From assembly GCF_964355755.1 (NCBI RefSeq), contig NC_092674.1:25482001-25546000 (forward strand): a DNA stretch of 64,000 nucleotides, given 5' to 3'. Positions 1,333 to 24,324 of the stretch are shown piece by piece. Origin of the DNA: Antedon mediterranea (taxonomy: Eukaryota > Animalia > Echinodermata). Each line of letters starts with the position of its first letter. The first letter of the stretch is position 1. A program made the position numbers and the translations under genes. The notes beneath the pieces were generated by a model that did not search any database, was not told the origin of the DNA, and was given only the letters and a program-made list of their open reading frames with translations.

Positions 1333-4300
1333 ATATTCAGAGCGTCATTTCGACGATGGAGCATTCTCTACTTCTACGGAGCGCCATTTATGCCTTTATT
1401 TACTTCCGAATTAGAAATAGTACTACGGTAACTGCTCCAGTGGACCAAATTTAGCACCGGTGGAGCACAGTGATATAAAATAGAAATAAGTCACTAATTT
1501 TAATATCTTTTCGTATGTAAATACACTGTGCTCAAGTGGACACAATTTGGCGCCAGTGAGGAGCACAGTGATATAAAATAGAAATAAGTCACTGAATTTT
1601 AATATCTGTTCGTATGTTGATAACACTGTGCTCAAGTGGACACAATTTGGAGCTAGGGGAGCACAATGATATAAATAGAAATAAATCACTGAATTTTAAT
1701 ATCTTTTCGTATGTTAATACACTGTGCTCAAGTGGACCCAATTTGGAGCCAGGGGAGCACAATGATATAAAATAGAAATAAATCACTGAATTTTAATATT
1801 TTTTCGTATGTTAATACACTGTGCTCAAGTGGACCAAATTTGGCGCCAGGAGAGCACAGTGATATAAAATAGAAATAAGTCACTGAATTTTAATATCTTT
1901 TCGTATGTTAATACACTGAGCTCACGTGGACCCAATTTGGAGCCAGGGGAGCACAGTGATATAAAATTGAAAAAAAGTCACTGAATTTTAATATCTTTTC
2001 GTATGTTGATAACACTGTGCTCAAGTGGAACCAATTTGGAGCCAGGGGAGCACAGTGATATAAATAGAAATAAATCACTGAATTTTAATATCTTTTCGTA
2101 TGTTAATACACTGTGCTCAAGTGGACCAAATTTGGCGCCAGGAGAGCACAGTGATATAAAATAGAAATAAGTCACTGAATTTTAATATCTTTTCGTATGT
2201 TAATACACTGTGCTCAAGTGGACCCAATTTGGAGCCAGGGGAGCACAGTGATATAAAATTGAAAAAAAGTCACTGAAATTTAATATCTTTTCGTATGTTA
2301 TTACACTGTGCTCAAGTGGACCCAATTTGGCGCCAGGAGAGCACAGTGATATAAAATAGAAATAAGTCACTGAATTTTAATATCTTTTCGTATGTTAATA
2401 CACTGTGCTCAAGTGGACCCAATTTGGAGCCAGGGGAGCACAATGATATAAAATAGAAATAAATCACTGAATTTTAATATTTTTTCGTATGTTAATACAC
2501 TGTGCTCAAGTGGACCCAATTTGGAGCCAGGGAGCACAGTGATATAAAATAGAAAAAAGTCACTGAATTTTAATATCTTTTCGTATGTTAATACACTGTG
2601 CTCAAATGGACCTAATTTGGCGCCAGTGGAGCACAGTGATATGAAATAGAAATAAGTCACTAATTTTAATATATTTTCGTATGTTAATATACTGTGCTCA
2701 AGTGGACCTAATTTGGCGCCAGTGGAGCACAGTGATATGAAATAGAAATAATTCACTGAATTTTAATATCTTTTCGTATGTTAATACACTGTGCTCAAGT
2801 GGACCCAATTTGGAGCCAGGGGAGCACAGTGATATAAAATTGAAAAAAAAAGTCACTGAATTTTAATATCTTTTCGTATGTTATTACACTGTGCTCAAGT
2901 GGCCCCAATTTGGAGCCAGGGAGCACAGTGATATAAAATAGAAAAAAGTCACTGAATTTTAATATCTTTTTGTATGTTAATACACTGTGCTCAAGTGGAC
3001 ACAATTTGAAGCCAGGGGAGCAAAGTGATATAAATAGAAATAAGTCCGCGAATTTTAATATCTTTTCGTATGTTAATACACTGTGCTCAAATGGACCTAA
3101 TTTGGCGCCAGTGGAGCACAGTGATATGAAATAGAAATAAGTCACTAATTTTAATATATTTTCGTATGTTAATACACTGTGCTCAAGTGGACCTAATTTG
3201 GCGCCAGTGGAGCACAGTGATATGAAATAGAAATAAGTCACTGAATTTTAATATCTTTTCGTATGTTAATACACTGTGCTCAAGTGGACCCAATTTGGAG
3301 CCAGGGGAGCACAGTGATATAAAATAGAAATAAGTCACTGAATTTTAATATCTTTTCGTATGTTATTACACTGTGCTCAAGTGGACCCAATTTGGAGCCA
3401 GGGAGCACAGTGATATAAAATAGAAACAAGTCACTGAAGGTTAATATCTTTTTGTATATTAATACACTGTGCTCAAGTGGACACAATTTGGATCCAGGGG
3501 AGCACAGTGATATAAAATAGAGAAAAGTCACTGAATTTTAATATTGTTTCGTATGTTAATACACTGTGCTCAAGTGGACCCAATTTGGAGCCAGTGGAGC
3601 ACAATGATGATATAAAATAGAAAAAAGTCACTGAATTTTAATATCTTTTCGTATGTTAATACACTGTGCTCAAGTGGACCCAATTTGGCGCCAGGAGAGC
3701 ACAGTGATATAAAATAGAAATAAGTCATTGAATGTTAATATATTTTCGTATGTTAATACACTGTGCTCAAGTGGACCTAATTTGGCGCCAGTGGAGCACA
3801 GTGATATAAATAGAAATAATTCACTGAATTTTAATATCTTTTCGTATTTAATATACACTATGCTCAAGTGGACCCAATTTGGAGCCAGGGGAGCACAGTG
3901 ATATAAAATTGAAAAAAAAAGTCACTGAATTTTAATATCTTTTCGTATGTTATTACACTGTGCTCAAGTGGCCCCAATTTGGAGCCAGGGAGCACAGTGA
4001 TATAAAATAGAAAAAAGTCACTGAATTTTAATATCTTTTTGTATGTTAATACACTGTGCTCAAGTGGACACAATTTGAAGCCAGGGGAGCAAAGTGATAT
4101 AAATAGAAATAAGTCCGCGAATTTTAATATCTTTTCGTATGTTAATACACTGTGCTCAAATGGACCTAATTTGGCGCCAGTGGAGCACAGTGATATGAAA
4201 TAGAAATAAGTCACTAATTTTAATATATTTTCGTATGTTAATACACTGTGCTCAAGTGGACCTAATTTGGCGCCAGTGGAGCACAGTGATATGAAATAGA

Positions 4301-6032
4301 AATAAGTCACTGAATTTTAATATCTTTTCGTATGTTAATACACTGTGCTCAAGTGGACCCAATTTGGAGCCAGGGGAGCACAGTGATATAAAATAGAAAT
4401 AAGTCACTGAATTTTAATATCTTTTCGTATGTTATTACACTGTGCTCAAGTGGACCCAATTTGGAGCCAGGGAGCACAGTGATATAAAATAGAAATAAGT
4501 CACTGAAGGTTAATATCTTTTTGTATATTAATACACTGTGCTCAAGTGGACACAATTTGGATCCAGGGGAGCACAGTGATATAAAATAGAGAAAAGTCAC
4601 TGAATTTTAACATTGTTTCGTATGTTAATACACTGTGCTCAATTGGACCCAATTTGGAGCCTGTGGAGCACAATGATGATATAAAATAGAAAAAAGTCAC
4701 TGAATTTTAATATCTTTTCGTATGTTAATACACTGTGCTCAAGTGGACCCAATTTGGCGCCAGGAGAGCACAGTGATATAAAATAGAAATAAGTCATTGA
4801 ATGTTAATATATTTTCGTATGTTAATACACTGTGCTCAAGTGGACCTAATTTGGCGCCAGTGGAGCACAGTGATATAAAATGGAAAAAGTCACTGAATTT
4901 TAATATCTTTTCGTATTTAATATACACTATGCTCAAGTGGACCCGATTTGGAGCCAGAGGAGCACTGTGATATAAAATAGAAATAAGTCACTGAATTTTA
5001 ATATCTTTTCGTATGTTAATACACTGTGCTTACGTGGACCCAATTTGGCGCGCCAGCCAGTGAGCACAGTAATATAAAATAGAAAAAAGTCACTAAATTT
5101 TAATATCTTTTCGTATGTTAATACACTGTGCTCAAGTGGACACAATTTGAGCACAGTGTATTAACATACAAAAAGATATTAACCTTCAGTGACTTATTTC
5201 TATTTTATATCACTGTGCTCCCTGGCTCCAAATTGGGTCCACTTGAGCACAGTGTAATAACATACGAAAAGATATTAAAATTCAGTGACTTATTTCTATT
5301 TTATATCACTGTGCTCCCCTGGCTCCAAATTGGGTCCACTTGAGCACAGTGTATTAACATACGAAAAGATATTAAAATTCAGTGACTTATTTCTATTTCA
5401 TATCACTGTGCTCCACTGGCACCAAATTAGGTCCACTTGAGCACACAGTGTATTAACATACGAAAAGATATTAAAATTAGTGACTTACAGTATTTGTATT
5501 TGATATCACTGTGCTCCACTGGCGCCAAATTAGGTCCATTTGAGCATAGTGTATTAACATACGAAAATATATTAACATTCAGTGACTTATTTCTATTTTA
5601 TATCACTGTGCTCCCCTGGCGCCCAATTGGGTCCACTTGAGCACAGTGTATTAACATACGAAAAGATATTAAAATTCAGTGACTTATTTTTATTTTATAT
5701 CACTGTGCTCCCCTGGCTCCAAATTGGGTCCACTTGAGCACAGTGTATTAACATACGAAAAGTTATTAAAATTCAGTGACTTATTTCTATTTCATATCAC
5801 TGTGCTCCACTGGCGCCAAATTAGGTTCACTTGAGCACAGTGTATTAACATACGAAAATATATTAAAATTAGTGACTTATTTCTATTTTATATCACTGCG
5901 CTCCAGAGTGCTAAATTTGGTCCACTGGAGCAGCTACCGTAGTACTATTTCTATTTCGTAAATAAATAAAGGCATAAATGGCGATCCGTAGAAGTAGAGA
6001 ATGCTCGATCGTCGAAATGACGCTCTGAATAT
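1333..6032. mobile_element. Foldback-type element with long modular inverted arms built of a 97-bp satellite
   Basis: About 100 bp of unique terminal sequence at 1333 (atattcagagcgtcatttcgacg...) is the reverse complement of the end at 6032 (...cgtcgaaatgacgctctgaatat). Satellite orientation flips at about 5135-5146. Flanks taatgcggag (1321-1330) and taatgcgaag (6033-6042) resemble a 9-10 bp TSD. Confidence 0.85.
1432..5935. repeat. 97-bp tandem satellite (about 38 units in one orientation, about 8 inverted) with a 1069-bp higher-order duplication
   Basis: Unit ctgtgctcaagtggacccaatttggagccaggggagcacagtgatataaaatagaaataagtcactgaattttaatatcttttcgtatgttaataca. 2795-3863 is nearly identical to 3864-4932 (identical ORF translations offset by 1069 bp). 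Confidence 0.95.
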
Positions 6033-6520
6033 TAATGCGAAGGGGCCAGGCCCAGCCCAGTGGTGTCTCATTTGGCTAGGCCCGTAGTAGAAGGCTAAAA
6101 AACCTGACTGAAGCTAGCTAAGGGTAGACTAGCCTACCAAACCATACAGGCACAGAGGCATGGTGACATCACAAATCAGCCCAGACTGGGTCTGAACGAG
6201 AGTAGCCCAACTACTACTACTAGAATTCTGTACTGAGTTTTAATAATTTATAAGGCTGAAATAAATGCCTGGGCTAGCTAGGCTAGCTTGATCCTCTGTG
6301 GTGTACCGAACAGGAGCATATATATAGCACACACAAAATAAATTTCCACAAGCCCCTACCAAATTTGACAGCAAACAAACCATTTTTTTTTTAATTTTTG
6401 ACTATTGAACTCCAAAATAATTCATAGATTCAACCTCAAGATTATTTATTTAAACTTACAAACTTTGCATTATTTATGGTTATAATCGAATTTACAATTT
6501 TGTCCTGATTATTTTGTTAG

Positions 6521-8605
6521 ATACTCGCCTGAATTGATGGCACATGTTCATATAATCTTACAAGACCTTCTGATCCTCATCAGCCGAGACTGACCGCTCA
6601 ACTGACCATTATTGACAAACACCAGCCAAAAAAAGAAAAACAGAACATTGATGATCCTTCACAGAAGAGTTCTCTGGCAATGCAAGAGGACAATAAATCA
6701 TCTCAAATGCAAAGCAGTCAGTATGTGTGTCCGTCCATCAGTCAACAAATTGATGGCACAGAAAAAATGGAAACACGAGCACAACAGAACACTGATGATC
6801 TACCAGAGAAGAGTTCTCTACTGGCTATGCAAGAGAACGATAAATCATCTCAAATGCAAAGCAGTCAGTATGTGTGTCTGTCCATCAGTCAGCAAACTGA
6901 TTGCACAGAAAAAATGGAATCACAAGCACAACAGAACACTGATGATCTACCAGAGAAGAGTACTCTGGCTATGCAAGAGAACAATAAATCATCTCAAATG
7001 CAAAGCAGTCAGTATGTGTGTCCGTCCACCAGTCAACAAACTGATGACACAATCAAGAAGAGTCTACTAGAAAGACTTAAGTTGTTTATCATGAAACTAC
7101 CGGTTGATGCCATCGTTCTACATCCAAATGCTGCAGAACTGTTTTGTAATTATGCAAGTGAATCAGGTTTACATACTGAATTCAGTTTTACAGAAAGGAA
7201 GTATACAGTTACCATGACAAAATTAAAGAAAGTGAAAAAGAAGAAAACAAATGTTCGAACACACCCTGTTTGGATATGTACCTTATACTTTGAAGATGTA
7301 TTAATCTGCTCCTCTGAAAATTTTGACAAAGTTGAGGCTAAACAAGACTGTGTTGTTGATGCTATAAACATTTTGATGCAACCAGACCTTCACATAAATA
7401 AAGTTGACAGTGCAGATTGGTGCAAGCACACATCTGAACTTGTGGTTGGTAAACTAGATGAAGAGAGTAATTTGTTTGTGAATGAATGTGAACACAGTGG
7501 CACAGAGAAGGCATACATGAATTATACTTCAATGAAGATTACATCTGGTATTGGCATGGAGATGATAAGGAAAATGGGATGGTCTGGTAATGGTGGTCTT
7601 GGTAAATATGAACAAGGTATCATTGAACCAATTTCATTCGTTCGACAAAGGAAATTTCGAGAAGGTTTGGGGTTTCCAGTTAAATCTGTTATTAAATTCA
7701 AGAACAAAACAAACTCTAAATTAACCAACAAACTTTATAATGGTAACCAAAGGAATCAGAAGAACCTTTTAGATGTTATTTTTAGTGAGCCTATAAATAC
7801 TCCTTTAGAGAATGTTGCAGAGACAAGGTCTTCAGATATTGAAAGTAAACCATTGCATTTTACACAATTTAAATCCTATTCAAAAACAACAAAGAATACT
7901 AGTGGGTTTGGTGCTTTTACTATCATTGAATCTGTAGATAATAATGCTGCCTCAGTGCTCATGAATTCAGCGAAAATTAATAAAGTTGCCATCCTGTTGG
8001 AAATTTCAACCATTCCTATTAAATATAGAGGAGAAATTGGGTATTTAGGTACATTGACACTTAGTGACATTGTAGTGGCTTGTGTTGTTCATGAAGATGA
8101 AAAGAAAGTTAAACAATGTGTTGCTGAAAAGTCACTGAAGAAGTTAAAAGCGTGTTGCTATACTCGGAAAAACGGATATTATCAATATTATAACACTGAA
8201 CATTTAAGTAATGTTTCCATGGAAACTAAACAATTTGATGAAGGTTATCTTAATACTAACAGACGTGTGAAAGAACCATTGGTTGAAGAATCATGCAACC
8301 GTAGTGCTGTTACTGATGATGCCAGTCTGTTAACTGAAGATGCCTTGAGAGAAACGGTGAAACAGTCCAGTCCAGACAGTGACTTGGTATTTACTTCTCA
8401 ACTGAGCAGTGCACATTTGAAAGTTATTCATGATACAGGCACAACATTTAAGTTGAATAGTAAATCTTATGGAAATGGTGATGATAACAAATTTGTTGTT
8501 AGTCGTAAAAGAGATGCTCAGCAGTTTGCAGAGTTTATACCAAAGATAGGTGGTAGTACCATACAAGAACATACTCTGGTACCTCAAGAAAAAATGATTT
8601 GGTAA
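6521..8605 (+). CDS. NKRF-like terminal-exon paralog 1 (dsRBM-like, G-patch, dsRBM-like, R3H); frameshifted near the acceptor, 641-aa ORF from ATG 6680
   Basis: Acceptor ttttgttag|a tac tcg cct gaa ttg atg (YSPELM). A 2-bp insertion (gttcatataat vs gttgataat in paralog 2) breaks the frame before 6680. G-patch ITSGIGMEMIRKMGWSGNGGLGKYEQGIIEPI; R3H-like DLVFTSQLSSAHLKVIHDTGTTFKLNSKSYG. Confidence 0.75.
6640..7060 (+). repeat. Three in-frame ~141-144 bp tandem repeats at the start of paralog 1
   Basis: AMQE(D/N)xKSSQMQSSQYVCxSxSQQ occurs three times in the translation. Confidence 0.85.
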
Positions 8606-8868
8606 AGTTTGCTCAAAGTCAATTTTGCATGGTTTTTTTTCAAGTCAGGTAGTCCCAGAGTTTTGATCTATTACTGAGGATAAGATATAGCATTAATTTT
8701 AGAATACTGTACTACAATAGTATTTTACTTCAGTAGGTGATAGCCTTGCTACATAATATAAAATGATAGTATGATGATGGTACAGTATAACACTTTACCG
8801 CCGTAGATTAGTAGACCTGATGTTCACATAATTTTAATAAAATATACCTTTTTATTTTTTTATTGTAG

Positions 8869-10675
8869 GCATTCACCAGAATTAATTGCAGATGTTGATA
8901 ATCTTGCAAGAGCTTCCAATTCTCATCAGCAGAGACTAACTGATCAACTGACCATTATAGACAAGCACAATCACCAATCAAACATGGAAACATCAGCACA
9001 CCAGCACAGCATGGACGCTAACCATCTTCCAGGAAAAAGCTACCCACCGGAAATGCATGCAAATAACGAATCGTCTCAAGGGCAAAGCAGTCAGTATGTG
9101 TGTCTGTCCACCAGTCAACAAACTGATGGCACAATAAAAGAAAGACTCAAGTTGTTCATTGCGAAACTACGAGTTGATGTCAACACTCTACATCCAAATG
9201 CTGCAGAACTGTTTTGTAATTATGCAATTGAATCAGGTTTACATACTGAATTCAGTTTTACAGAAAGGAAGTATACAGTTACCATGACAAAATTAAAGAA
9301 AGTGAAAAAGAAGAAAACAAATGTTCGAACACACCCTGTTTGGATATGTACCTTATACTTTGAAGATGTATTAATCTGCTCCTCTGAAAATTTTGACAAA
9401 GTTGAGGCTAAACAAGACTGTGTTGTTGATGCTATAAACATGTTGATGCAACCAGACCTTCACATAAATAAAGTTGACAGTGCAGATTGGTGCAAGCACA
9501 CATCTGAACTTGTGGTTGGTAAACTAGATGAAGAGAGTAATTTGTTTGTGAATGAATGTGAACACAGTGGCACAGAGAAGACATACATGAATTATACTTC
9601 AATGAAGATTACATCTGGTATTGGCATGGAGATGATAAGGAAAATGGGATGGTCTGGTAATGGTGGTCTTGGTAAATATGAACAAGGTATCATTGAACCA
9701 ATTTCATTCGTTCGACAAAGGAAATTTCGAGAAGGTTTGGGGTTTCCAGTTAAATCTGTTATTAAATTCAAGAACAAAACAAACTCTAAATTAACCAACA
9801 AACTTTATAATGGTAACCAAAGGAATCAGAAGAACCTTTTAGATGTTATTTTTAGTGAGCCTATAAATACTCCTTTAGAGAATGTTGCAGAGACAAGGTC
9901 TTCAGATATTGAAAGTAAACCATTGCATTTTACACAATTTAAATCCTATTCAAAAACAACAAAGAATACTAGTGGGTTTGGTGCTTTTACTATCATTGAA
10001 TCTGTAGATAATAATGCTGCCTCAGTGCTCATGAATTCAGCGAAAATTAATAAAGTTGCCATCCTGTTGGAAATTTCAACCATTCCTATTAAATATAAAG
10101 GAGAAATTGGGTATTTAGGTACATTGACACTTAGTGATATTGTAGTGGCTTGTGTTGTTCATGAAGATGAAAAGAAAGTTAAACAATGTGTTGCTGAAAA
10201 GTCACTGAAGAAGTTAAAAGCGTGTTGCTATACTCGGAAAAACGGATATTATCAATATTATAACACTGAACATTTAAGTAATGTTTCCATGGAAACTAAA
10301 CAATTTGATGAAGGTTATCTTAATACTAACAGACGTGTGAAAGAACCATTGGTTGAAGAATCATGCAACCGTAGTGCTGTTACTGATGATGCCAGTCTGT
10401 TAACTGAAGATGCCTTGAGAGAAACGGTGAAACAGTCCAGTCCAGACAGTGACTTGGTATTTACTTCTCAACTGAGCAGTGCACATTTGAAAGTTATTCA
10501 TGATACAGGCACAACATTTAAGTTGAATAGTAAATCTTATAGAAATGGTGATGATAACAAATTTGTTGTTAGTCGTAAAAGAGATGCTCAGCAGTTTGCA
10601 GAGTTTATACCAAAGATAGGTGGTAGTACCATACAAGAACATACTCTGGTACCTCAAGAAAAAATGATTAGGTAA
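8869..10675 (+). CDS. NKRF-like terminal-exon paralog 2 (open reading frame; chimera of paralogs 3 and 1)
   Basis: Acceptor tttttattgtag|g cat tca cca gaa tta att (HSPELIADV), in frame with ORF 8984-10675. Body is nearly identical to paralog 1 at a 2070-bp offset. Confidence 0.8.
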
Positions 10676-10938
10676 AGTTTGCTCAAAGTCAATTTTGCAT
10701 GGTTTTTTTTCAAGTCAGGTAGTCCCAGAGTTTTGATCTATTACTGAGGATAAGATATAGCATTAATTTTAGAATACTGTACTACAATAGTATTTTACTT
10801 CAGTAGGTGATAGCCTTGCTACATAATATAAAATGATAGTATGATGATGGTACAGTATAACACTTTACCGCCGTAGATTAGTAGACCTGATGTTCACATG
10901 ATTTTAATAGAATATACCTTTTTATTTTTTTATTGTAG

Positions 10939-12555
10939 GCATTCACCAGAATTAATTGCAGATGTTGATAATCTTGCAAGAGCTTCCAATTCTCATCAGC
11001 AGAGACTAACTGATCAACTGACCATTATAGACAAGCACAATCACCAATCAAACATGGAAACATCAGCACACCAGCACAGCATGGACGCTAACCATCTTCC
11101 AGGAAAAAGCTACCCACCGGAAATGCATGCAAATAACGAATCGTCTCAAGGGAAAAGCAGTCAGTATGTGTGTCTGTCCACCAGTCAACAAACTGATGGC
11201 ACAATCAAAGAAAGACTCAAGTTGTTCATTGCGAAACTACGAGTTGATGTCAACGCTCTACATCCAAATGCTGCAGAACTGTTTTGTAATTATGCAATTG
11301 AATCAGGTTTACATACTGAATTCAGTTTTACTGAAAGGAAGTATACTGTTACCATGACAACATTAAAGAAAAGGAAAACGAAGAGGAAACAAAATGTTAG
11401 AATACACCCTGTTTGGATATGTACCTTATACATTGAAGATGTGTTCATCTGCTCTGCTGAAAATTTCAACAAAATTGAGGCTAAACAAGAATGTGTTTTT
11501 GATGCTATAAGGAAGATTACCTCAGGAACTGGAATGGATATCATAAAGAAAATGCGATGGTCTGGTAAAGCTCGTAAAAAGAAACGAGGCATCAGGAAAC
11601 AAATGTCATCATCTCAAGAATGGCAATTCCGTAAAAGTTTAGGGTTTTCTGCTGAATCTGTAGATGTTTGTTTTAGTGAGCCTATTAATACTCCCTTTGC
11701 ATTGTGTAATCCTCCTAAAACATGGGATTTTAACAAAATCTATTCTAAAACAAAAAAGAATACTAGTAGTAGGTTTGGCGATTTTATTATCATTGAATCC
11801 GACATTCACCACAAGAGTAACATTGCTGTACTAAGAAATTCAGCGAAAATTAATAAAGTCCGCATTCTGTTAGAAATGTCCACCATTCCTGTTAAATATA
11901 AAGGTAACATCGGGTATTTAGGCATATTGAAACTTTCGGAGCTTTTAGTGGCTTCTGTTGTTCATAATGATGAAAAGAAAGTTGAAGATGTTGTTGCTCG
12001 GAAGTCACTGCAGAAATTAAAAGCTTGTTGCTACACTCTGAGGACACTCAAGTCTGATGAATATGACACTGGACAAAGCAATATTGTCAACTTGCAAACT
12101 ATACAAAATCTTGGACAACATATCTGACAAGTACTCCAAAAATGGATGTGCAGCCTTCCATGAAAACTGAAGAAATTGATGAAGATGATCTTGACAGTAA
12201 CAGTGATTTGGAAGAACCATTGGTAAAAAAATCACGCAACCATTATATTGGTGCCCCTCCGTTGACCGAGGATGCCTTAAGGGAAATGGTGAAACGCTAT
12301 GCTGTTGGACAAGAAGAAGAGGACTTGGTATTTACTTCTCAATTGAGTAGGATGGAGAGAAAAATAATCCAAAATACATGCAATAAATTCAGGTTGAAGA
12401 GTAGATCTTATGGCAAAGATGATGATAACAGATTTATTGTTGTCAGTCGTAGAAGAGATGCTCAGCAGTTGGCAGAGTTTGTAGATAAGAAAGGTGGTAG
12501 TACCCTACAACATACACTTGTTCCTCCACAAATGTTGTGTAATGTAGAAAAATAA
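10939..12555 (+). pseudogene. NKRF-like terminal-exon paralog 3; degenerate G-patch, frameshift before the R3H domain
   Basis: Same acceptor as paralog 2 at 10939. ORF stops at 12127; R3H (DLVFTSQLSRMERKIIQNTCNKFRLKSRSYG) continues in another frame at 12142-12555. Confidence 0.7.
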
Positions 12556-13710
12556 ATAAAAACTATATTGTTGCAGAATGATTTTAAAGGTTATTACGGT
12601 AAATGTAAAAAAAAAAATTGCAGAAAATTAAAGAAATGTAAAATGTCGAAATCATAATAGGCCTACTGCAATCAAATAAGAAAAACAAAATGTATTTATT
12701 GTCTTAAGTTAGAGAAGAAAATTGTTATTTTGTTGTTTATTCTGGTGTTGCATCAATAGATAAGTTTTTTTATTTTTAAGCATTTTATATTAAACATGTG
12801 TTTTCCCAAAAACATTAATTTATAAAATGAAAGAAGAAAAATGTGTAAGAACTAAATCCAATTGTTATTTTGTTGTTTTATCTGCATTAACTACATTAAA
12901 AAGGTTTGAATTTGAATAGAAATATTAAAACTGGTGTTGCATCAATTGATGAGTTTTTTTCTTGTTATGGTTTTTAATTAAATATGTATTGTACCAAAAA
13001 CATGAATTTAAAAAATGAAAAACAAAAATAAAACTTTCAATAGGCAATTTAATTTTAATTTTACAGTAAAGGTAATGTTTTTTTTTTTATCCAGTTTTAG
13101 TGAATAACTATTATGTGACAATGAAATAATGGCATATTTAACCCAAAAAATGCATTATTTTTTTCAGGGGGACAATATATCTTTAATTTTCTTTAAAAAA
13201 AATTTATTCTAAATTTATGCTCTAAATTTGTAAATAAGGTAGGTGTACTGTATATTATGGAACGCCATCACTGCCTCCGGCAGCAAACGTTAATTCTATT
13301 CGGCTCTTTTAGCATTACGTTCGGCTCTTTTAGCATTCGGCGCATTTCTATTCGGCCCATTTACCATTACGTTCGGCTCTTTTAGCATTACGTTCGGCTC
13401 TTTTAGCATTCGGCGCATTTCTATTCGGCCCATTTACCATTACGTTCGGCTCTTTCAGCATTCGGCTCTTTTTTATTCGGCCCATTTACCATTACGTTCG
13501 GCTCTTTCAGCATTCGGCTCTTTTTTATTCGGCCCATTTACCATTACGTTCGGCTATTTTTTATTCGGCCCTTTTTTATTCGGCGCAATTAAATTCTAAC
13601 CTTTGACATAGGGTCAAATGAAAGAAAATCAACGGCTGGAAATGAGTCTATGAAAAGTTTACAAAACATACAGCCTGCTGCGCTCTGCAGAGTGTTTGGT
13701 TCACTAATTA

Positions 13711-15363
13711 ATTAATGTGTTAGAGAACTTGCAATTGTCCCACCTTATTGACCATTTTGAGAGAGAAAAGGTTTGATTTATTGCCAACCCAAGAGGCTAG
13801 CTAGTAGGCCTACTAGCCTACTAGGCCTAGCCTATAATTAATAGGGTAGTTTATACTAGGCTAGGCCTACTACTAGCTAGGCCTAGGCCTTCTATTCTAC
13901 TTAATTAGGCTAGTAGTACTATAGATAGTAGAGTATCAATCAAAATATTACTATAATTTCGATAGGCCTAGGCTAGACTAGAGTGGTAGTATTGGTTTAG
14001 TAGTAGTTTAGGCTAGGTAGGCTAGCCCAAACAATCCTAACACAATAGGGCTAGACCTAGCCTATTTATTATTACGCTTTCCTAGAGGACTATTATTACT
14101 ACTCTAGGTCTAGCCTAGGCCTACTCTGCTAGGTAGGCCTAGACTAATTCTGTTTGTTTGAGCACTTTTGTTTTAGCCTAGCCATACAACATTACAAAAT
14201 GTCTAGTAGTAGTAGGCCTAGGCCTATACTATATATAGTAGTACGTAGTAGTACCAATGATATTAATAATTATATAGCCGAAGGCTAGATGGCAAACTGC
14301 AATGTTATCGCAGTTCAAGAAGTGCCAAGATGGCGGCTGCAATTGACCAATCAGATATGCCCTACGCAGTATGCACTGCTATAGTTATACGCCTGTGTTG
14401 AGCCTATTCGTGAGAACGATACGCAACGCAGCGTGTTAAGTGTATAATTTTATTCTAAAAACATGACTTAGGTACATGTTCAGTCAGATTTCAGCCTGCC
14501 ACACACTCATGTCAACGTATGAGACGCTGATATAATTGCCAGCTAGATTTTATTTTATGATTGAGTCCCTTCTTCCTAGGCCAAATCAATATTGGTATAA
14601 GTGTTTTGTAATGATTGAACTGATTTATTGATTGATTAACCATAAATCAGTAATGAATTAAATTGTTTTTAACATCATGAAAATGAGGATGTTAAAACAA
14701 AAGAACAAAGTGGATTATTGTACACAAAAAGCCTAACAATAGTACTCATTATTAATAATGATAATTAAAAAACAGGCTTAATTTATAATATTAAAATCAC
14801 AAATGAAACCCTGTAGTTTTCAATATAATACCTTTTTTGAATGAATGATATACAGTATATATTATGACTAATTTTGTAATACCGGACCATATTTGGCGGT
14901 CAAAAACAGTCCTACTGCCCAGACCGATTTTATCCAGGCCGGACTAGTTTTGGCGGTTAAAAAAGGTCTGGCCGGACAGGTTTTGAAAGCCAAAACTGAC
15001 CATATTTAACTATAATTAAAGTATATGTTTAACAAATAACAGTATGATGAAAAAAATCATAGAGAATGTATTGAATAAATATTTATTATTTCTTATTTAA
15101 TATAGATCACTACTGATGTAGTAGAACTTCTGAGTGTCACAGATTTTCAGCTTGTTGGTGTGTATGATGTGGCTACAGTAACAGCAATAAAAGATGAATG
15201 TACAAATTCAAGTTTGTTAAATAAAGGGAAAGCTAATACATATGTCATCAAAAAAGAAGTATTGGAAAGCCTTATTTGTGAAGGCTTCAAGTATTCTGAA
15301 ATTGCTGCTATACTGTGTGTTAGTGTTCGTACAGTATTCAGACGACTACAGATGTATTTTTGA
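13711..15363 (+). pseudogene. Truncated putative transposase: SAM-like domain plus HTH (exons ~13711-13770 and 15106-15363)
   Basis: INVLENLQLSHLIDHFEREK|gt...ag|ITTDVVELLSVTDFQLVGVYDVATVTAIKDEC followed by HTH YVIKKEVLESLICEGFKYSEIAAILCVSVRTVFRRL. No DDE domain present; no in-frame start codon. Confidence 0.65.
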
Positions 15364-17135
15364 ACCAATCCTGAGTTTTCTTCAATGTTCTAAAAACAAT
15401 ACAAATTTAAAATGAATAAAAATAATTTATCACAATCTGTAAATGTAGCAATTGAAGCTAAAACAATAAAACAATTGAATGATATACTATCCATAATATC
15501 TCAGTATGAATAAAAACTATTAAGCTATTTTACTTACAGACTCTGCTTCCATACTTAAGGCATTTTGAATTGGCCGTAAGTAAATTCGGCCTTGCCCTAA
15601 CTTATCTCTGATGTTTAAAGGGGTATAACTTCCCTTCAGAGGTAAAAGTTGTCTCTCATTCCCAAAGCAGAGCATGATTTCAAATCCCCCTGCATTTTTC
15701 AGCTTGGGGAAGCTGGCGAATAAAACTGTTTCAAATTCTTCCGGGGTTGCATTTATATCGGGCGCGGTAACATTTTTTCCTCCAAGTCCGGCCTCTGCCA
15801 GCATCTGCTTTCTACATGCTTTAGGTGTTGCATCTGTATCTGGCTCAGCCAGGCAAACCACCTTTCTTGTCCATGATGATATTTTTTTTTTTTTTTTTTT
15901 GCATATGGCTTAGTTTTGCCTACTGGCAAAAATCTGGACAAAATGGATCCTATTAAAAAACATAAATAGATAAATAGATAACAGTATTTGAAGCCAATAA
16001 TACAAAATTGATCTTTACACACACACACAAAATTCATACTGTAAATTGCTAAATTAATACAAAAAAACACATGAAAACAAAGGTCATGAAGGATAACATG
16101 TGTCGATGGTCATCAAAATAAGTTTTAAAATGAACAAGATCAAAAGAATATGTTCACAAGTAAATAAGGCAGAATACATCAATAGAAGTTTGATAAAGAA
16201 TAATCGGTTATGACATAGCTCCATCGTAAGCCAATTGGATGGCTGAACGGTAGATTATGCTCCTTTAGTGTTCATGGTCCCAAACCCAACGATGCCTAAA
16301 TTTTTTCTTTTTTTGTTTATAACGCTCCATCTTCTTTCTTCACCATTCACCATTTGGAGGGAGGGACGCTTTTAGGGGATTCCATTTACGACTTATTGTG
16401 TGGATAGCCATGGTGTCAAGAAAAAGGGGTAAAAAGGGGGTTAAGTACATAGAGATTGCAATTATAGGACTTATACCTGTCTGTCTACAGTTGGCTCGTA
16501 GACGCTGACGGTCTCCGAGGGTTGCAACCCCCAGACTTGTTAGCTGTGCGTCCGTCAAAGCACCAACTTCATCACTTGTAATCTGAAATGATAATAAGAG
16601 TCTGAAATTGTACACACTATAACAACCTTGCATGCAAAAATACAGGGTTGCTTTGAATTGGCCTACTTAAAGATTAAAAATATAAAGATTATTATTCACT
16701 TATTTCTTAATTATATCTATTTTTTTTAAACTTAATTTTATATAGTTTTATTATATAGTGGATAACTAGGCCTATCAATTATGTGACATTACAAAAAATT
16801 GCATATTTATTAAACAAAAAGTAAGATAATTATTAAGAATTATTTTTTTTCAGGGTGAACAATACATTAAAATTTAGAATGTTTTTTTTTATAAATAAAA
16901 TAAATAAGCCAAATCAATATACAGTAATTAATCATTATTAACTAGGGCCTAGGCCTAGTATAGGGCATAGGCTAGGCCTAGTAAAAAATATTATATGCCT
17001 AGCCTAGGTAGGCCTCTTCTATGACTGTTTTAGTACTTATGGCCCTGGTTAGTACTAGGCCCTCCTCCTAGCCTTAGGCCTAGCCTGGACCTATAGAAAC
17101 TAGGACTGCCTACTAAGTATTAACTATAGTTATTA

Positions 17136-18686
17136 TCTATATATAAATTTACGTAAGGGCAAAATTCGGTAAATCGCGCCTTACTTCTAGAATTTTTACA
17201 CGGTGGTATATAAAGTTGGTTGGTACTTTCGGTACTGATTTTAACCACCTGATGTAACCCTGTTTACTAATTAAATTAAGTTAGATAATTAGTTATTGAC
17301 GATTAAAACGAATTTAGGTTCAACGATTTGCCCCAAATAGGGGTGTTTTCCGATCGTGGTATACACTGTCTAATGGATGTCCGTCTTGAAAAATACCCGC
17401 CACAAAAATGCGAGGAGGCTTCGCATTTTCCTATCTCCTCCTACGATAATTGTTTTTAATAGCTGAAAACCGGTTGAACAGTTCGAGTACAGCATCATAA
17501 TGTTGAAGACAGGCCGATTTTCTTTAAAAAATACTATTTTGATACATTTAATATACGTTTTTACAAATGTATTGATTTGTGATGAATGGAACATTCCAAA
17601 TTATTTGGTTTAACCATACAGGTATAGATTTAGATTTATGGGCCCCCTTGGAGAATAAACATAAATAGTATTGCAATGCTGTACAATACTGTTAAGGTAT
17701 TAACCACTTTTGATCGCAATTTGAATCGCAAATTTCTTACTGTGAGTGTTGGTACTGTTAGATGTAATATAAAAATATATACAAATAAACTTTATTACTG
17801 TGAGTGTGGGTAGGCCCTACTGTTAGATTATAAACATATAATATAGAAATAAACATTCCAAATTATTTGGTTTAACCATAGAGGTATAGATTTAGATTTA
17901 TGGGCCCCCTTGGAGAATAAACATAAATAGTATTGCAATGCTGTACAATACTGTTAAGGTATTAACCACTTTTGATCACAATTTGAATCACAAATTTCTT
18001 ACTGTGAGTGTTGGTACTGTTAGATGTAATATAAAAATATATACAAATAAACTTTATTACTGTGAGTGTGGGTAGGCCCTACTGTTAGATTATAAACATA
18101 TAATATACAAATAAATAAATGTTATTACTGACAGTTGCTTCTCAACGTTTGTATTAATTAATAATTTAAAAATATATAAGCGTCGTAGTGGTGTACTTTA
18201 CTATTTCAATCGACTATGACAGTGAGAGTTTTAACAAAGTACCGTATTAAATCGTAAATGTTTTACTGTATTTAGTGGTATATTATTTATAGGCCTATAA
18301 AACATTAAAAACAATATTTCGTTACTGAGTGGATAAGAATATATTTTAAAATGTTTCCTCTTTGTACCCATCTTCTTCCCCCATCCCTCAACCCTTAATG
18401 TTACATACAAAACACAAATTGGGTTTGTTTAAATGAGTCCAAATAAAAAAATTTGACTCATTTTGTTTTTCTCTCGGAAGTAATTCCCAGGGTGCTAATT
18501 TTGGTTGACTACATAAATCATTGTGTATATTTATTCGTTTCTGTAAACGACAATATGTATTATAGTCCTGCGGTACGTACACTGTTTGAAATCTCCATTT
18601 TTTTCTCGCTGGAAATACTGTGTATTCGAGAACCATCTGTGGGCACGACCTAGATGGTACGCGAGCGAAGCGAGCGTGCCATCTAG
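17136..18686 (+). mobile_element. Non-autonomous Helitron, copy 1 (nested in the TIR element)
   Basis: A|TCTATATATAAA 5' end and hairpin-CTAG|T 3' end (ctagatggtacgcgagcgaagcgagcgtgccatctag). No TSD. Internal ~263-bp tandem duplication near 17590-18115. Ends shared with 33209-35769. Confidence 0.85.
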
Positions 18687-18921
18687 TTATAGTAATTATT
18701 ATTAGGCATACTTTATATTAAACTAACAAGTCTAGCTAGGGTCAATATCCATAAAATGGCCATGACTGTTTAGATTGCATCTCCTCATAGTTTTTCTGTA
18801 TCACGTGTAGCTACTGTTTTGTGTGTGTTACTACTGTGTGACGTGGGTTATCAGGATATTTCACTTTAAGTTTAGGCCTTCTACCTACCCATACAATTTA
18901 TATTACAGATCTAGCCTAGGC

Positions 18922-20225
18922 CATGGATTAAAGAATAGAAGGATATGCATCGACGTGAGATCAAGGGTTCCTTGACTCTCGCCGACAGACCGCGGACCGC
19001 CCACAATGTTACAGTTTAATTAACCGCATGGTAACAACGAAACGGTCGCGTGCCTAATATATTGTTTACTGCACATGTGCAACGACATTTAACCTTGTTG
19101 GCTACTACGCTTCTTTCGCGCGTTCTTTGGTGGCATGATGTTTGTAGATGGTCAACTATTGACTATGTTGGTTTCTGCCGCGATTGATCTACGCTAATGA
19201 TTTTTTTATGATGATTAAAGTAGCATTTTATGACCTGTAGTAGCCCTACATCTGAGACAATAACTATTAGTTGTCTCATTTGTTGTAAAATTACAAAATC
19301 AGCAAGAATGCTAGCCTAGCTAGGCCCAGGCCTTGTACTAACTAGGCTAAACTGGGCTAGTAAACCCTATGATTTGCCGACATTGATACTGCCTAGGTAG
19401 GCCTAGGCTAATCTTAAATACTCACCGTTGTCTTACTTCTTGTGTGAATAATAATAATAGGTAGGCCTACTTCGTTTGTTCGTGATCAAGTTTGCCCTGC
19501 GTGTACTTTTCAAAACGACCGCTAGGTAACGAATCGCAACTATACATAGCCAGCCAATCCCGGATCAGGGATCGCTGTTTTCATTCAATTAGGCCCGGTG
19601 ATTGGATGTGATGTGGATGACATAACCACTAGCCAATCACCAGGCACTACAGTTTAAATATAATCACATCGATAATTAAGGAGATTTATGAAGAAACCAC
19701 TGCTTAGCCATATATTAAAAAACACGATTGTTGTATGTCTGAACACCGGCCACGCTAACAACATACATGGTCAAATGCATAATTTAATATTCTATAGATT
19801 AACGCAATTTTTAATGACAGAAGATGGCAGGCAAATAATGATAATTCAAATATAAAAATGGCATATTTTATTAATATTACCAACTACCTAAAATTACCAG
19901 TCGTAAGAAAGTGAACTTTTCGTAGTCCGATTGTGATGAAACTAAAACAGAATTATTCAGCAATATATGTTTGTTATCAATTAATCATCGACGCAGACAT
20001 GTCAATAGAACATTCAGACTGCGCATACGATTTCTACATGGTTACGTTTTGGTCTCAAAAAATGTAACAGTTGATTCGCAGCGTTTTACAGAGGGCCGCG
20101 GTTAGAGACACGGAGTTCAATGAACGTGTTTGTTTGATTGGCAGCAGTGCTTTAGTATAGGCAAGCGCGTTGTAAAATCGTTTGATGTCACCGTCGATGC
20201 ATATCCTTCTATTCTTTAATCCATG
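18922..20225. mobile_element. P-element-like MITE (nested in the TIR element)
   Basis: Perfect 34-bp TIR catggattaaagaatagaaggatatgcatcgacg, CAT..ATG ends, 7-bp TSD cctaggc. Confidence 0.8.
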
Positions 20226-20978
20226 CCTAGGCCTAGGCCTAGCTTAGACCTAGTGTCAGACTAACATTTAATAATAATAATAATCATTTACCCTTTCTCT
20301 CTCAAAATTTGTTAAAAGATTACTTAAATTTAGGTTATTCAACACATCTTTAATCGATTGGCTACTCATGGTTGGCGCATGATGATGAATTGTAAACTTT
20401 TCATAGACTCATTTCCAGCCGTTGATTTTCTTCCATTTGACCCCATGTCAAAGGTTAGAATTTAATTGCGCCGAATAAAAAAGGGCCGAATAAAAAAGAG
20501 CCGAACGTAATGGTAAATGGGCCGAATAGAAATGCGCCGAATGCTGAAAGAGCCGAACGTAATGTTAAATGAGCCGAATAGAAATGCGCCGAATGCTAAA
20601 AGAGCCGAACGTAATGGTAAATGGGCCGAATAGAAATGCGCCGAATGCTAAAAGAGCCGAACGTAATGGTAAATGGGCCGAATAGAAATGCACCGAATGC
20701 TAAAAGAGCCGAACGTAATGGTAAATGGGCCGAATAGAAATGCGCCGAATGCTAAAAGAGCCGAACGTAATGCTAAAAGAGCCGAATAGAATTAACGTTT
20801 GCTGCCGGAGGCAGTGATGGCGTTCCATAGTATATACAGGTATTAACTTCAGCGTTGTTTGCTTGTCATACCTTGAGTTACCGCTTGGTGGCGCTTTTTA
20901 GCTAACTCGAGTGTTTACGTTACGTAGCGTACAGTTTTAATTTTTCTCTACAAAAAGTAAAGTAAATTTGTAATTAAA

Positions 20979-23900
20979 ATGAATTCTGACGAGTTAGCAG
21001 ATTATGTCGAGAAGAAGTACAGAAAAGAGTATGAACCTAAAGGACACTGGCTAGCAAGAAAGGAGTTTCTTCTTAGAAATTGGGCAGATTATCCAGAACG
21101 ACAAATTGTATGCCTGTCCATGGTTTGGTCAAATATGGAGTACGATGGAAGCACGTAAGTACCGCATGATAAGGGATAGGTAGTGACGATGTATACTATA
21201 GGACTAGGCCTACTACAGCTTTGTTTGTTGTTCGTCTCTTGCTTTGGTTTGTTCTGATATTGATGGTGGCAAGTTTTCGGCGTGTACGGAAAGTTTCAAC
21301 TTTATTACCTTAAGAATAATATTATTGTAACACTACAGACTCATCAGACAGTCAGAGAGAATATTATTAATAATAATATTTCAAAATACTGTACAGTAAA
21401 ATTAAATAAAAGTAAATACTGTAACAGTACTGTAATAAAATATTTGTAGACCCTTTAATTAATATTAACTTGCCATCAGCATGCCAGTGTTATATTTATT
21501 TGTTTGTTGTTCAGCTTTAGTTTTTTTTTGGTGCAGCCAGTACTGTATCATTTAATAATTAATACTGTAATTCTTATTTAAGTTCAGATCATCTAGGCCT
21601 ATCTCTATCTATCCATATCGTTGAATAGTACTACTAGTACTGTAAGTACTACTAGCCTAAAAGGTAGGCCTACTCTAGAACAAACCACAACATTTATTTA
21701 CAAATTGCACATTAATCTTGTTTATGACAAATATCCACGGTAAAGATCAAATACACAACATTAACAATGAATCATTGTGCTTTCATGTGGTAGGTATCAC
21801 CCAGAATTGATGGATAAAGTGAAGGACTTGGCTGCAGGCATTATCCCCAACGACCCCTAAACACAAATTGGTAAGAAAATTTAGGTAATCAATTTAGTAA
21901 TGTGCCTGCTTTTTATTTATTTATTCATGGGGACAATCTTTAACTTTTAATAAATAAGTTTACCAAGACACAAATTGTTCCATATTGACATTGCTGGTCT
22001 GCAGGACAATTTTGGCAAATATTCTATTCTACTGCCAGATTTACCAAATTTAACTTACCCTAAAAACATTGTGGTGGCGCCAACCTTTTTTCACCACCAA
22101 AAAAAACAAACTAAAATGAACTTTTAATTGATGTTAATTACTGTACCTTCTTCCATTCAACTTCAATAATAAAATGGGTGAGTACCTACAGTATTACATG
22201 TTCAATGGTTCTGTACCGTATGTGTCCACTTTCAAAACATGTCTTTGTCCACATCAAAACCAGTGTAATCAGGGATACTGTATGACCTACTCTTTCATTT
22301 GGTTTTTACAAAATGTTTATTTCTCCTTAAAAATTCTGCACTAGGATTATTAACATTGTTTTGCAACTGTTTTGCTATCATGTGACACGTGCAAGCGAAA
22401 TCAGACATTAGTTGGAATTTTCAAAATTGAAATTTTCGCAAATACTACTACATACAGTAATCCAAGATTTAAATTACTGAAAAACATATCTTGATACCAT
22501 GTCCACTTTCTATTCAGATATTACAGTCTAAAGTTTTTTCCACATCAAACCAATGTAATTATTTCATTTGTTTTTTTTACAAAACAATGTTTTCCTACAC
22601 AATTTTGCACTAGGATCTTATTATTAACATGTTTCCCAATGTTTTGCTATTAACAGTAGCATTAAATTATCCTCGGCCAATTGAAATGCTAAAAATAGGA
22701 CCCTACAGTAATTACATTATTGCAATATTTGTTTTTGTTAAGTGTTGGGAGAATTTGACTCGGTATGGTTTCCTTATTTAAAATAAAATTTATATTGTAC
22801 TGTAGATATGCAACTGAACTAATGGAAAAGGTAAAACTTCTTGGAAGTGGAATTGATCTGCAATTGTATGATTCAATTACTACTAATACTACTACAACTA
22901 AAACACCAAAACAAACAAGTTTAAAAAGAGCATCTTCAGAACCTACTGAAGATACCCCAGCCAATAAGATTAGAAAGAACTCTGATGCCAAGGAAGAGCC
23001 ATCCATCAGTCATCAGAATGATTCCGTTTGTAAGGAATTACCAGACATTTTAAAAACATTTATCAGGAAACTTCCTCCTCAATCAACCATAAATCAATCA
23101 AACGCTATCGATATTTTCTATATTACTGCTAGTAAAGCAAGAATTCATCCGGACATTTCGTTTACAGAGAAGAAAGAACCGATCACTGATAATCCAATCA
23201 AAAAAGGAAAGAAGAAGAAAATTGTGATGGCAACATCGTGGTTATGTAGACTATACATCGGTGATTTGCTAGTTTGCTCATCAGAGAGTTTGAACAAAAC
23301 TGAGGCTAAACGCAAGTGTTTTGCAGACGCTGTCACTATGCTGTTTAATCCAAATGTTTGCGTGAAGAACGTGAACTATGTTGTAGAGGACGAACGTAAA
23401 CACACAACTGAACTTTTTATTGATCTTGCTTCCAACGATTTAGTTGCGGACGCAAAGAGTGCAACGATCAAACAATCAGAGAGCGACATTGACGTAAAAA
23501 GTAAGCCTTCAGTGACATTGTTGAGTAAAAATTCAAATACTGATAAAAACGGTTTTGGGAACTTTATTCTTGTTGAAAGTTCAACGCATGAGGTCCCAAT
23601 AACCACAATTATGTCATCAGCTGCAAGAAACAAAGTTGAAGCTGTTATTGAGATATCTGATTCACCTGTCAGTCACAATAAGGAAACTGGTTATTTAGCG
23701 ACGTTGTTGCTAGGGGATAAAGTGGTAGCACGTGCAGTCAACCAAGACAAGAAAGCGGTGAAGCACGCAGTGGCTGAAGCGGCAGTTAATTTGTTAAAGA
23801 CTTGTTGCTATACTATCAAAACTCGATTCCATGAGCATGAAAATGCGCAAAGTAATGCTGTTAGCATGAAGGAGGTCAACACAGAGGATGAACAAAAAAT

Positions 23901-24324
23901 TACCTCAGGCATCGGCATGGAACTCCTTAAGAAAATGGGGTGGTCTGGGGAAGGTGGCCTAGGAAAGAAAGGCCAGGGCCGAGCAGAACCGGTGATGGTT
24001 GTAGAAAAAAGCAACCGTAAAGGTTTTGGTACTTCAACTATTAAACAAACTGATATAACTTCCCTCAAACAAATGGTGAAGAATTTTGCTATCGAAGGTC
24101 GTGAAGATGACCTGGTGTTTTCTTCCGAGTTGAATAATGAACAAAGAAAAGTGTTGCACACCACTTGCCGTAAATTTAATTTAAAAAGCACTTCATACGG
24201 CAAAGACGATGATAGGTACCTCATCATAAGTCCTAAAAGAAACATTCAACAGTTGGCTGAGTATATAGAAAAGAATGGTGGAGAAACTTTACAATATATA
24301 CTTATACCTCCATCTAAAAAATGA
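20979..24324 (+). CDS. NKRF: NF-kappa-B-repressing factor-like protein (XTBD, dsRBM-like x2, G-patch, R3H), about 564 aa; exons 20979-21154 and 22806-24324
   Basis: Exon 1 MNSDELADYVEKKYRKEYEPKGHWLARKEFLLRNWADYPERQIVCLSMVWSNMEYDGS (XTBD-like); donor ac|gtaagt, phase 2; acceptor tgtag|a tat gca act gaa cta (YATELMEKV). G-patch GIGMELLKKMGWSGEGGLGKKGQGRAEPV followed by R3H. Confidence 0.85.
21794..21860 (+). CDS. Alternative exon 2a giving an 80-aa XTBD-only isoform (CDKN2AIPNL-like)
   Basis: tag|g tat cac cca gaa ttg atg gat aaa gtg aag gac ttg gct gca ggc (YHPELMDKVKDLAAGIIPNDP*). Same phase as, and homologous to, the start of the long exon. Confidence 0.7.
22380..22500. repeat. Dispersed repeat fragment, also present inverted at about 60700-60820
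   Basis: gtgacacgtgcaagcgaaatcagacattagttggaattttcaaaa matches the reverse complement of about 60776-60820. Confidence 0.55.

Follow-up and report, generated by a model that had tools for sequence, protein, structure and literature searches.

The window analysed here is a stretch of 64,000 nucleotides from the genome of the crinoid Antedon mediterranea (NC_092674.1, positions 25,482,001 to 25,546,000 of the forward strand; all coordinates below are those of the window). It contains a DNA transposon at 13256-20829 with two convergent genes, each of which begins with a SAM domain split by an intron (Table 1). The outermost 35 nt at both ends form a perfect inverted match (TATGG..CCATA, with TAT..ATA as the terminal bases), and a scan of the flanks gave the 6-bp sequence GTATAT as the sole solution for a target site duplication (TSD). 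The terminal inverted repeats (TIRs) are approximately 410 bp (left) and 440 bp (right) long, share 90% identity and are composed of 52-bp subrepeats. In a contig of 3587 nt from the public sequencing run X1, position 13249 is fused straight to 20830 with a single copy of the target. The insertion is therefore real and polymorphic, and it is likely recent. The read depth in X1, which does not give a copy number, was much higher for TIR contigs than for the coding core and a few-fold higher for the coding core than for the empty site. A preliminary description of this DNA had placed a transposon with IS3EU-type ends (TAY..RTA) and a 6-bp TSD at exactly these borders, in full agreement with the inverted tips, the TSD, the TIRs and the empty site. 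Without two nested insertions, the element measures about 4.7 kb.

The right gene starts with the ATG at 20369. Because this codon is situated only 21 bp inward of the TIR edge, transcription of the gene probably starts within the TIR. The donor GTAAAT follows position 20292 and is joined in phase 0 to the acceptor before 16582, whereas the intron between exons 2 and 3 is of phase 1. A SAM profile was built from 70 SAM heads of database proteins, with the sequences of the window excluded. The spliced right peptide reached 69.7 bits on this profile, gapless at the joint, and is thus a member of the SAM family. The gene models of relatives are in accordance with this structure: in the Anneissia model P0002, the joint of exons 1 and 2 is continuous protein, and exons 2 and 3 are connected in the same manner in the Antedon model P0001. 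The reading frame of exon 3 is broken at a run of 19 A (15882-15900), at which contigs break as well. The frame of P0001 is open where the window copy has this run, and the frameshift may be either a mutation or an assembly error. The nearest database protein to the domain encoded by the right gene is an A. mediterranea model with 98% identity.

In the left gene, a weak donor (GTTTGA) after 13770 is joined to the acceptor before 15106, again in phase 0. The spliced peptide scored 26.8 bits on the SAM profile (model positions 4-55, gapless at the joint) and likewise belongs to the SAM family. Exon 1 alone reached 15.1 bits, exon 2 alone 1.3 bits, and the maximum among 500 shuffled sequences was 7.3 bits. 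The left SAM is divergent in helix 5. It is followed by a helix-turn-helix (HTH), which was assigned to Pfam HTH_23 with an E-value of 1.3e-5 exceeding the curated cut-off. This HTH could be aligned to the HTH of the intact rva_4 transposases at two metagenome loci described below, L011 and L016, with scores that were reached by 2 of 1000 shuffles in one case and by 0 of 1000 in the other. Immediately after the HTH, the frame meets a stop or a weak donor. In the ESM Atlas, left exon 2 returned HTH leads only, all below 0.9. The left gene is likely the front end of a transposase. The splice sites of both genes (13770/15106 and 20292/16582, phase 0), the two SAM heads divided at the same position and the HTH had all been proposed in the preliminary description. 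All four splice signals are present at those places, both peptides score as SAM and are divided at the same codon, and the Pfam match bears out the HTH. The splice joints rest on the splice signals, on the continuity of the profile match and on the gene models of relatives. Contigs covering 15020-16720 contained no splice joint, nor did the 15 of 363 joints listed for the whole element, a result that says nothing about expression.

Table 1 Features of the transposon and its two convergent genes in the window (strand: +, forward; -, reverse;., none assigned)
Feature	Position	Strand	Basis or remark
Left TSD copy, 6 bp, GTATAT	13250..13255	.	Present once at the empty site of the run X1 contig
Left TIR; ~38-bp unique tip, 52-bp subrepeats, ~70-bp inner part	13256..13664	+	Sequence
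Left exon 1; SAM first half, without in-frame ATG, in-frame stop just upstream	13711..13770	+	Sequence, profile
Left intron; phase 0, GT..AG, contains high-copy repeats	13771..15105	+	Splice signals
Left exon 2; SAM second half without GDR motif, then HTH as in IS3EU transposases	15106..15363	+	Profile, alignment
AT-rich junction (23% GC) where the truncated genes meet	15364..15537	.	Sequence; common to other copies
Right exon 3; basic linker and predicted ubiquitin-like domain, ends at strong GTAAGT donor	15538..15949	-	Homology, model
Right exon 2; SAM second half with GDR motif	16477..16582	-	Profile
Right intron; phase 0, enlarged by both nested insertions	16583..20291	-	Splice signals
Nested high-copy repeat; TC...CTAG ends between A and T	17136..18686	+	Not in other copies; joint 17135-18687 in X1 and X6
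Nested TIR element; CATGG..CCATG ends, 7-bp TSD	18922..20225	.	Not in other copies
Right exon 1; ATG and SAM first half, ATG 21 bp inward of TIR edge	20292..20369	-	Sequence, profile
Right TIR	20390..20829	-	Sequence
Right TSD copy, 6 bp, GTATAT	20830..20835	.	Sequence

The identity of the right gene was deduced from its relatives. Among cluster representatives, 929 proteins match exon 3 at E <= 0.001; most of the 150 that were listed are short, and six of these 150 have a SAM head. HECT was detected in 2 of the 56 relatives scanned with Pfam. The Anneissia protein P0002 (56% identity) contains a Pfam SAM_2 domain above the cut-off, and its sibling P0003 bears a HECT domain. HECT was also found in P0105, P0157, P0199, and P0228, the last three of which are full SAM..HECT proteins with the catalytic-cysteine motif. 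This motif is present in five of six long relatives checked. Full proteins of Mytilus, Ptychodera, and Saccostrea show the order SAM, an unnamed domain corresponding to exon 3, a C2HC zinc finger, and HECT, and 44 of 76 SAM-head proteins match the unnamed domain. In a word-based search for longer proteins, right exon 3 had no match among 175 candidates. In the ESM Atlas, the domain falls into unnamed clusters of cnidarians and molluscs.

The fold of the unnamed domain was predicted by modelling P0002 with AlphaFold (131 sequences, pLDDT 86.5). The model has five helices at residues 7-69 and an alpha/beta domain at residues 84-193, the top structural matches of which are ubiquitin-like throughout. 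With VIA, the best match was the ULD of TBK1 (Z 7.0, root mean square deviation 2.6, 79 aligned), and Ufm1, RA, and PB1 domains were also retrieved. Foldseek gave no match at E 0.001, the best being the RBD of Rgl2 with 6e-3. A ubiquitin-like (Ubl, beta-grasp) fold is thus the prediction for a domain whose presence behind the right SAM had been noted earlier as uncharacterized. The right gene is likely the front of a gene for a SAM-Ubl-zinc finger-HECT E3 ligase, and what had been called an accessory protein can be specified accordingly from the intact relatives.

Both genes are truncated where they meet. Between the strong donor of right exon 3 and the weak donor of the left gene lie 177 AT-rich bases, and the same junction is carried by other copies, as seen in an unbranched 791-nt contig of X1 that covers 15074-15864 with seven differences. 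An rva_4 DDE core was not found in a six-frame scan of the whole window with the core profile, and a HECT domain with its catalytic cysteine is absent from the element. As DDE core and HECT domain are missing and both genes are broken, the element is a non-autonomous deletion derivative. We infer that a deletion between one intron of each gene removed the DDE core, the zinc finger, and the HECT domain. Of the two-component system envisaged in the preliminary description, the IS3EU type, the convergent genes, the paralogous SAM heads, and the likely transposase front on the left hold, but a working system is not encoded by this copy.

Relatives that still encode a transposase were found among 18 metagenome loci retrieved with the Ubl domain. 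A convergent DDE core is present in seven of them, five of which originate from one assembly, so that the number of independent cases is approximately four. No DDE core was seen in the remaining 11 loci, which comprise nine short contigs as well as L014 and L015 (16 kb). The complete 7.5-kb element in L011 (9131-16598) shares its first 11 terminal nt with the window element, has a 6-bp TSD, and contains a Ubl gene together with a convergent rva_4 transposase (265 bits). In its core motifs, this transposase agrees with the IS3EU rows of the PMC10045372 supplement. In L001 and L008, a SAM-headed gene faces a convergent DDE core, the N-terminus of the transposase being off the contig, and in L004 the same terminal 9-mer lies about 300 bp ahead of a SAM-headed gene. 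IS3EU elements are defined by TA..TA termini and a 6-bp TSD (PMC10045372). The window element has TAYGG..CCRTA termini in its TIRs and a TSD of this length, lacks the internal DDE core of an autonomous member, and has its ends and internal genes in common with the DDE-encoding element of L011, a relative; the direct parent was not found. Judged by its sequence, it is a non-autonomous IS3EU derivative. Polintons also produce a 6-bp TSD, yet have AG..TC ends (PMC6839031), and Mutator was ruled out by ends and TSD. The family had no match in a collection of viral contigs, and the Ubl alignment had none in a collection of genome contigs. Three short bacterial matches to the transposase in genome contigs (L019-L021) were judged to be due to chance.

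The two SAM domains of the element are closely related. In a tree of 63 SAM rows, the left SAM, the right SAM, and P0002 form one group (support 97/99), and a motif at the exon junction is confined to these three rows. The same residue is encoded at 18 of 37 codons in left and right SAM, and ten of these codons differ between the two (P 0.0003 when compared to a neutral simulation). The first exons adjoin the near-identical TIRs just beyond the TIR edge. When both arms were compared, 103 of 105 positions were identical in the inner TIR, 34 of 54 in exon 1, and 24 of 52 in the non-coding spacer; the likeness of the intron ends did not exceed that of shuffled sequences (70/200). Since the coding halves are alike and the similarity drops to about the chance level in the spacer and at the intron end, the two SAMs are old paralogues under selection rather than a recent copy made with the TIR. 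Recent homogenization of the TIRs as the sole cause of the likeness was ruled out by the synonymous changes and by the divergence of spacer and intron ends. The GDR motif, present in 64 of 70 SAMs of the family, is not found in the left SAM, which retains the acidic mid-loop region; the start of its helix 5 has a net charge of 0 compared to a family mean of +1.6. All 20 matches of the SAM profile in the PDB bear a SAM by name, with 4NL9 as the top entry and ANKS6, BICC1, and tankyrase in the lead. Loose contig ends at the acceptor of right exon 2 in the runs X1, X6, and X12 point to more, diverged families that share the start of this exon. The ligase gene is the likely source of the left SAM, which would have been copied onto the transposase in crinoids.

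The most probable explanation, in our view, is an internally deleted IS3EU element whose two stumps are the front of a SAM-HTH transposase and the front of a SAM-Ubl HECT ligase, the SAM of the transposase having been copied from the ligase gene and kept as a docking site. The end of the element on the ligase side would have been duplicated in inverted orientation, so that the ligase gene's 5' portion (first exon, intron, and the beginning of exon 2) came to lie ahead of the transposase. The copied SAM would have stayed coding under selection as its helix 5 changed. Subsequently, a deletion reaching from an intron of one gene into an intron of the other would have cut off both catalytic halves and produced a derivative that may still be mobile in trans. 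The contact between paired SAM domains is formed by an acidic surface at the mid-loop and a basic one at the end-helix, and a partner that has one of the two can cap a polymer (PMC4105859). In the parent element, the ligase SAM would retain both surfaces and the transposase SAM the acidic mid-loop only, so that the transposase SAM would bind the ligase in one direction, as ANKS6 does when it caps ANKS3. Docking would present the transposase to the ligase as a substrate for ubiquitination and would limit or time transposition. By analogy with the ANKS pair, we tentatively propose such one-way docking, in which the ligase SAM would bind to that of the transposase and thereby recruit the substrate. 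The far-reaching version, in which a crinoid IS3EU copied the SAM of its ligase onto its transposase by end duplication and pruned one binding face, and the ligase captures and ubiquitinates the transposase of its own element as a form of SAM-addressed self-regulation, is somewhat unlikely to be correct in all its parts. The copy itself is a broken derivative, and the putative SAM-SAM interaction concerns two domains of about 60 residues.

Several observations weigh against this explanation. The donor behind the left HTH is weak and putative, the similarity of this HTH to the transposases is limited (E 0.006 and 0.011 with tblastn on a small database), and a word-based search for longer proteins with left exon 2 gave no match among 114 candidates. 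An intact SAM-HTH-DDE protein was not found: none of the 76 SAM-head proteins matches a transposase, in a search whose lowest listed match had 38 bits and which would overlook a SAM with the divergence of the left one (27 bits). With a long branch (2.21) and 58 columns in the tree, the left SAM is not securely placed. The selection signal is mixed by exon, with P 0.11 for residue identity and P 0.011 for the synonymous count in exon 2, and the loss of the GDR motif could be plain decay. With regard to the Ubl fold, the Z of 7.0 obtained with VIA is within the range that the tool rates as common. Finally, intact family members had been expected to possess both SAM exons and a DDE transposase. 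The DDE core is indeed present in L011 and others, but a SAM match was obtained on neither gene of the elements in L011-L013, L016, and L018, in which the pair of ligase and transposase is present. SAM docking is therefore not the general link between the two proteins.

With the same element and the same history, the transposase SAM might serve oligomerization on the TIR subrepeats or contact with a host SAM partner rather than binding of the ligase. The selection on the left SAM is silent about the partner, the many subrepeats would suit an oligomeric binder, and the nearest solved SAMs include the polymer formers tankyrase, BICC1, and Shank. However, the left SAM is devoid of the basic helix 5 start that is required for head-to-tail self-association (PMC4105859). 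We rate self-oligomerization or a host partner as rather unlikely taken by itself, and as nearly as likely as docking onto the ligase. It is improbable that the left gene is complete and encodes a small DNA-binding regulator of the SAM-HTH type, with the ~4.7-kb element being a stable two-protein family, possibly dominant-negative on an autonomous partner. The end of the frame directly after the HTH would be in line with such a regulator, as would the junction common to other copies (791-nt contig) and the lack of any loose end with a coding continuation past the HTH, but the HTH is similar to, and placed like, that of IS3EU transposases, the strong donor of right exon 3 has no splice partner, this copy lacks a start codon on the left and is frameshifted on the right, and there is no clear synonymous excess between copies, four of the seven differences changing a residue. 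A passive by-product of TIR extension, never functional and decaying, is a very improbable origin of the left SAM: the alignment of the arms extends past the TIR as far as exon 1 and the intron start, an in-frame left ATG is missing and the GDR motif is gone, yet the spacer is identical at 24 of 52 positions and the intron end at chance, and the coding halves, 1.3 kb apart, are conserved and gapless with both splice sites kept and many synonymous changes.

The element was compared to known systems. IS3EU/GingerRoot elements have TA..TA termini, a 6-bp TSD, and TIRs as well, and relatives with nearly identical tips encode the rva_4 DDE transposase (PMC10045372, PMC6839031). In contrast, the window copy lacks the DDE core, and its TIRs of ~410 bp exceed the 100-150 bp reported for GingerRoot. 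A HECT gene does not appear in these papers as far as their available parts extend ("HECT" is absent from the text and supplement of PMC10045372, "ubiquitin" from PMC6839031). The fungal TET+ IS3EU families share the TAYGG..CCRTA ends, the 6-bp TSD, and a transposase on the strand opposite to a second enzyme gene; their second gene encodes an alpha-kinase, with TET/JBP in between, and the available text describes neither SAM nor HECT (PMC12730594). The IS3EU superfamily and opposite-strand second genes in its fungal members are known (PMC12730594), and the twin SAM is new. A search of the published literature, which did not extend to Repbase entries and subscription papers, gave no paper that combines IS3EU with HECT or SAM. 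Repbase names ending in _1p/_2p suggest that two proteins per family are already curated there.

The ANKS3/ANKS6 SAM pair comprises the closest solved SAM sequences and served as the model for one-way docking of end-helix and mid-loop and for capping (PMC4105859). Both are host kidney proteins, and the comparison is an analogy only. G2E3-like HECT proteins of invertebrates and fish, of which the right gene corresponds to the N-terminal part (P0003 is named G2/M phase-specific E3 ligase-like), are annotated as host genes, whereas here they occur in or beside IS3EU elements, and the window copy is without zinc finger and HECT. The element thereby links this large SAM-Ubl-zinc finger-HECT class to IS3EU transposons, and the unnamed domain of its proteins is given a predicted fold. 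If the twin SAMs bind each other, the substrate of the ligase would be the transposase, which would explain why these transposons carry a ubiquitin ligase, and the duplication of a TIR end would have created a new interaction between the two proteins of one element. The maize element MuDR, which has a longer TSD, resembles the window element in layout. Its transposase gene mudrA and its mudrB are transcribed convergently from promoters in the TIRs, but MuDR belongs to an unrelated superfamily, and its two genes have no domain in common (PMC3276141).

Some further observations concern the related loci and the element itself. L016 (8925-19091) contains a complete-looking IS3EU with a Ubl/HECT-type gene and a convergent DDE core, in which only 5 bp of the flanks match. 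A weak match to Ulp1-like peptidases together with a PHD finger was detected upstream of the IS3EU copy in L013 (3824-4480), and also in L012 near 7000-7740; this gene probably belongs to a neighbouring transposon. The same upstream ATG is found near the inner edge of both TIRs, at 13650 and at the matching place of the right TIR. On the right, the stop of the short upstream frame overlaps the main ATG of the gene, a possible case of translational control. Of the two nested insertions, the repeat at 17136-18686 is present in very high copy, includes a tandem duplication of 262 bp, and has a partial second copy near 34477-35776; its ends are presumably Helitron-like. The element at 18922-20225 resembles a P-like non-autonomous element.

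The transposon is inserted in a tandem array (6476-12555 and 20979-24312) of at least four genes with dsRBD, G-patch, and R3H domains, which show 31-59% mutual identity and which we assume to be NKRF-like. It lies approximately 145 bp upstream of the ATG of an XTBD exon at 20979 and could affect the expression of the corresponding gene. At 1433-5932, a satellite array with a 97-bp unit consists of about 38 copies followed directly by about eight in the opposite orientation.

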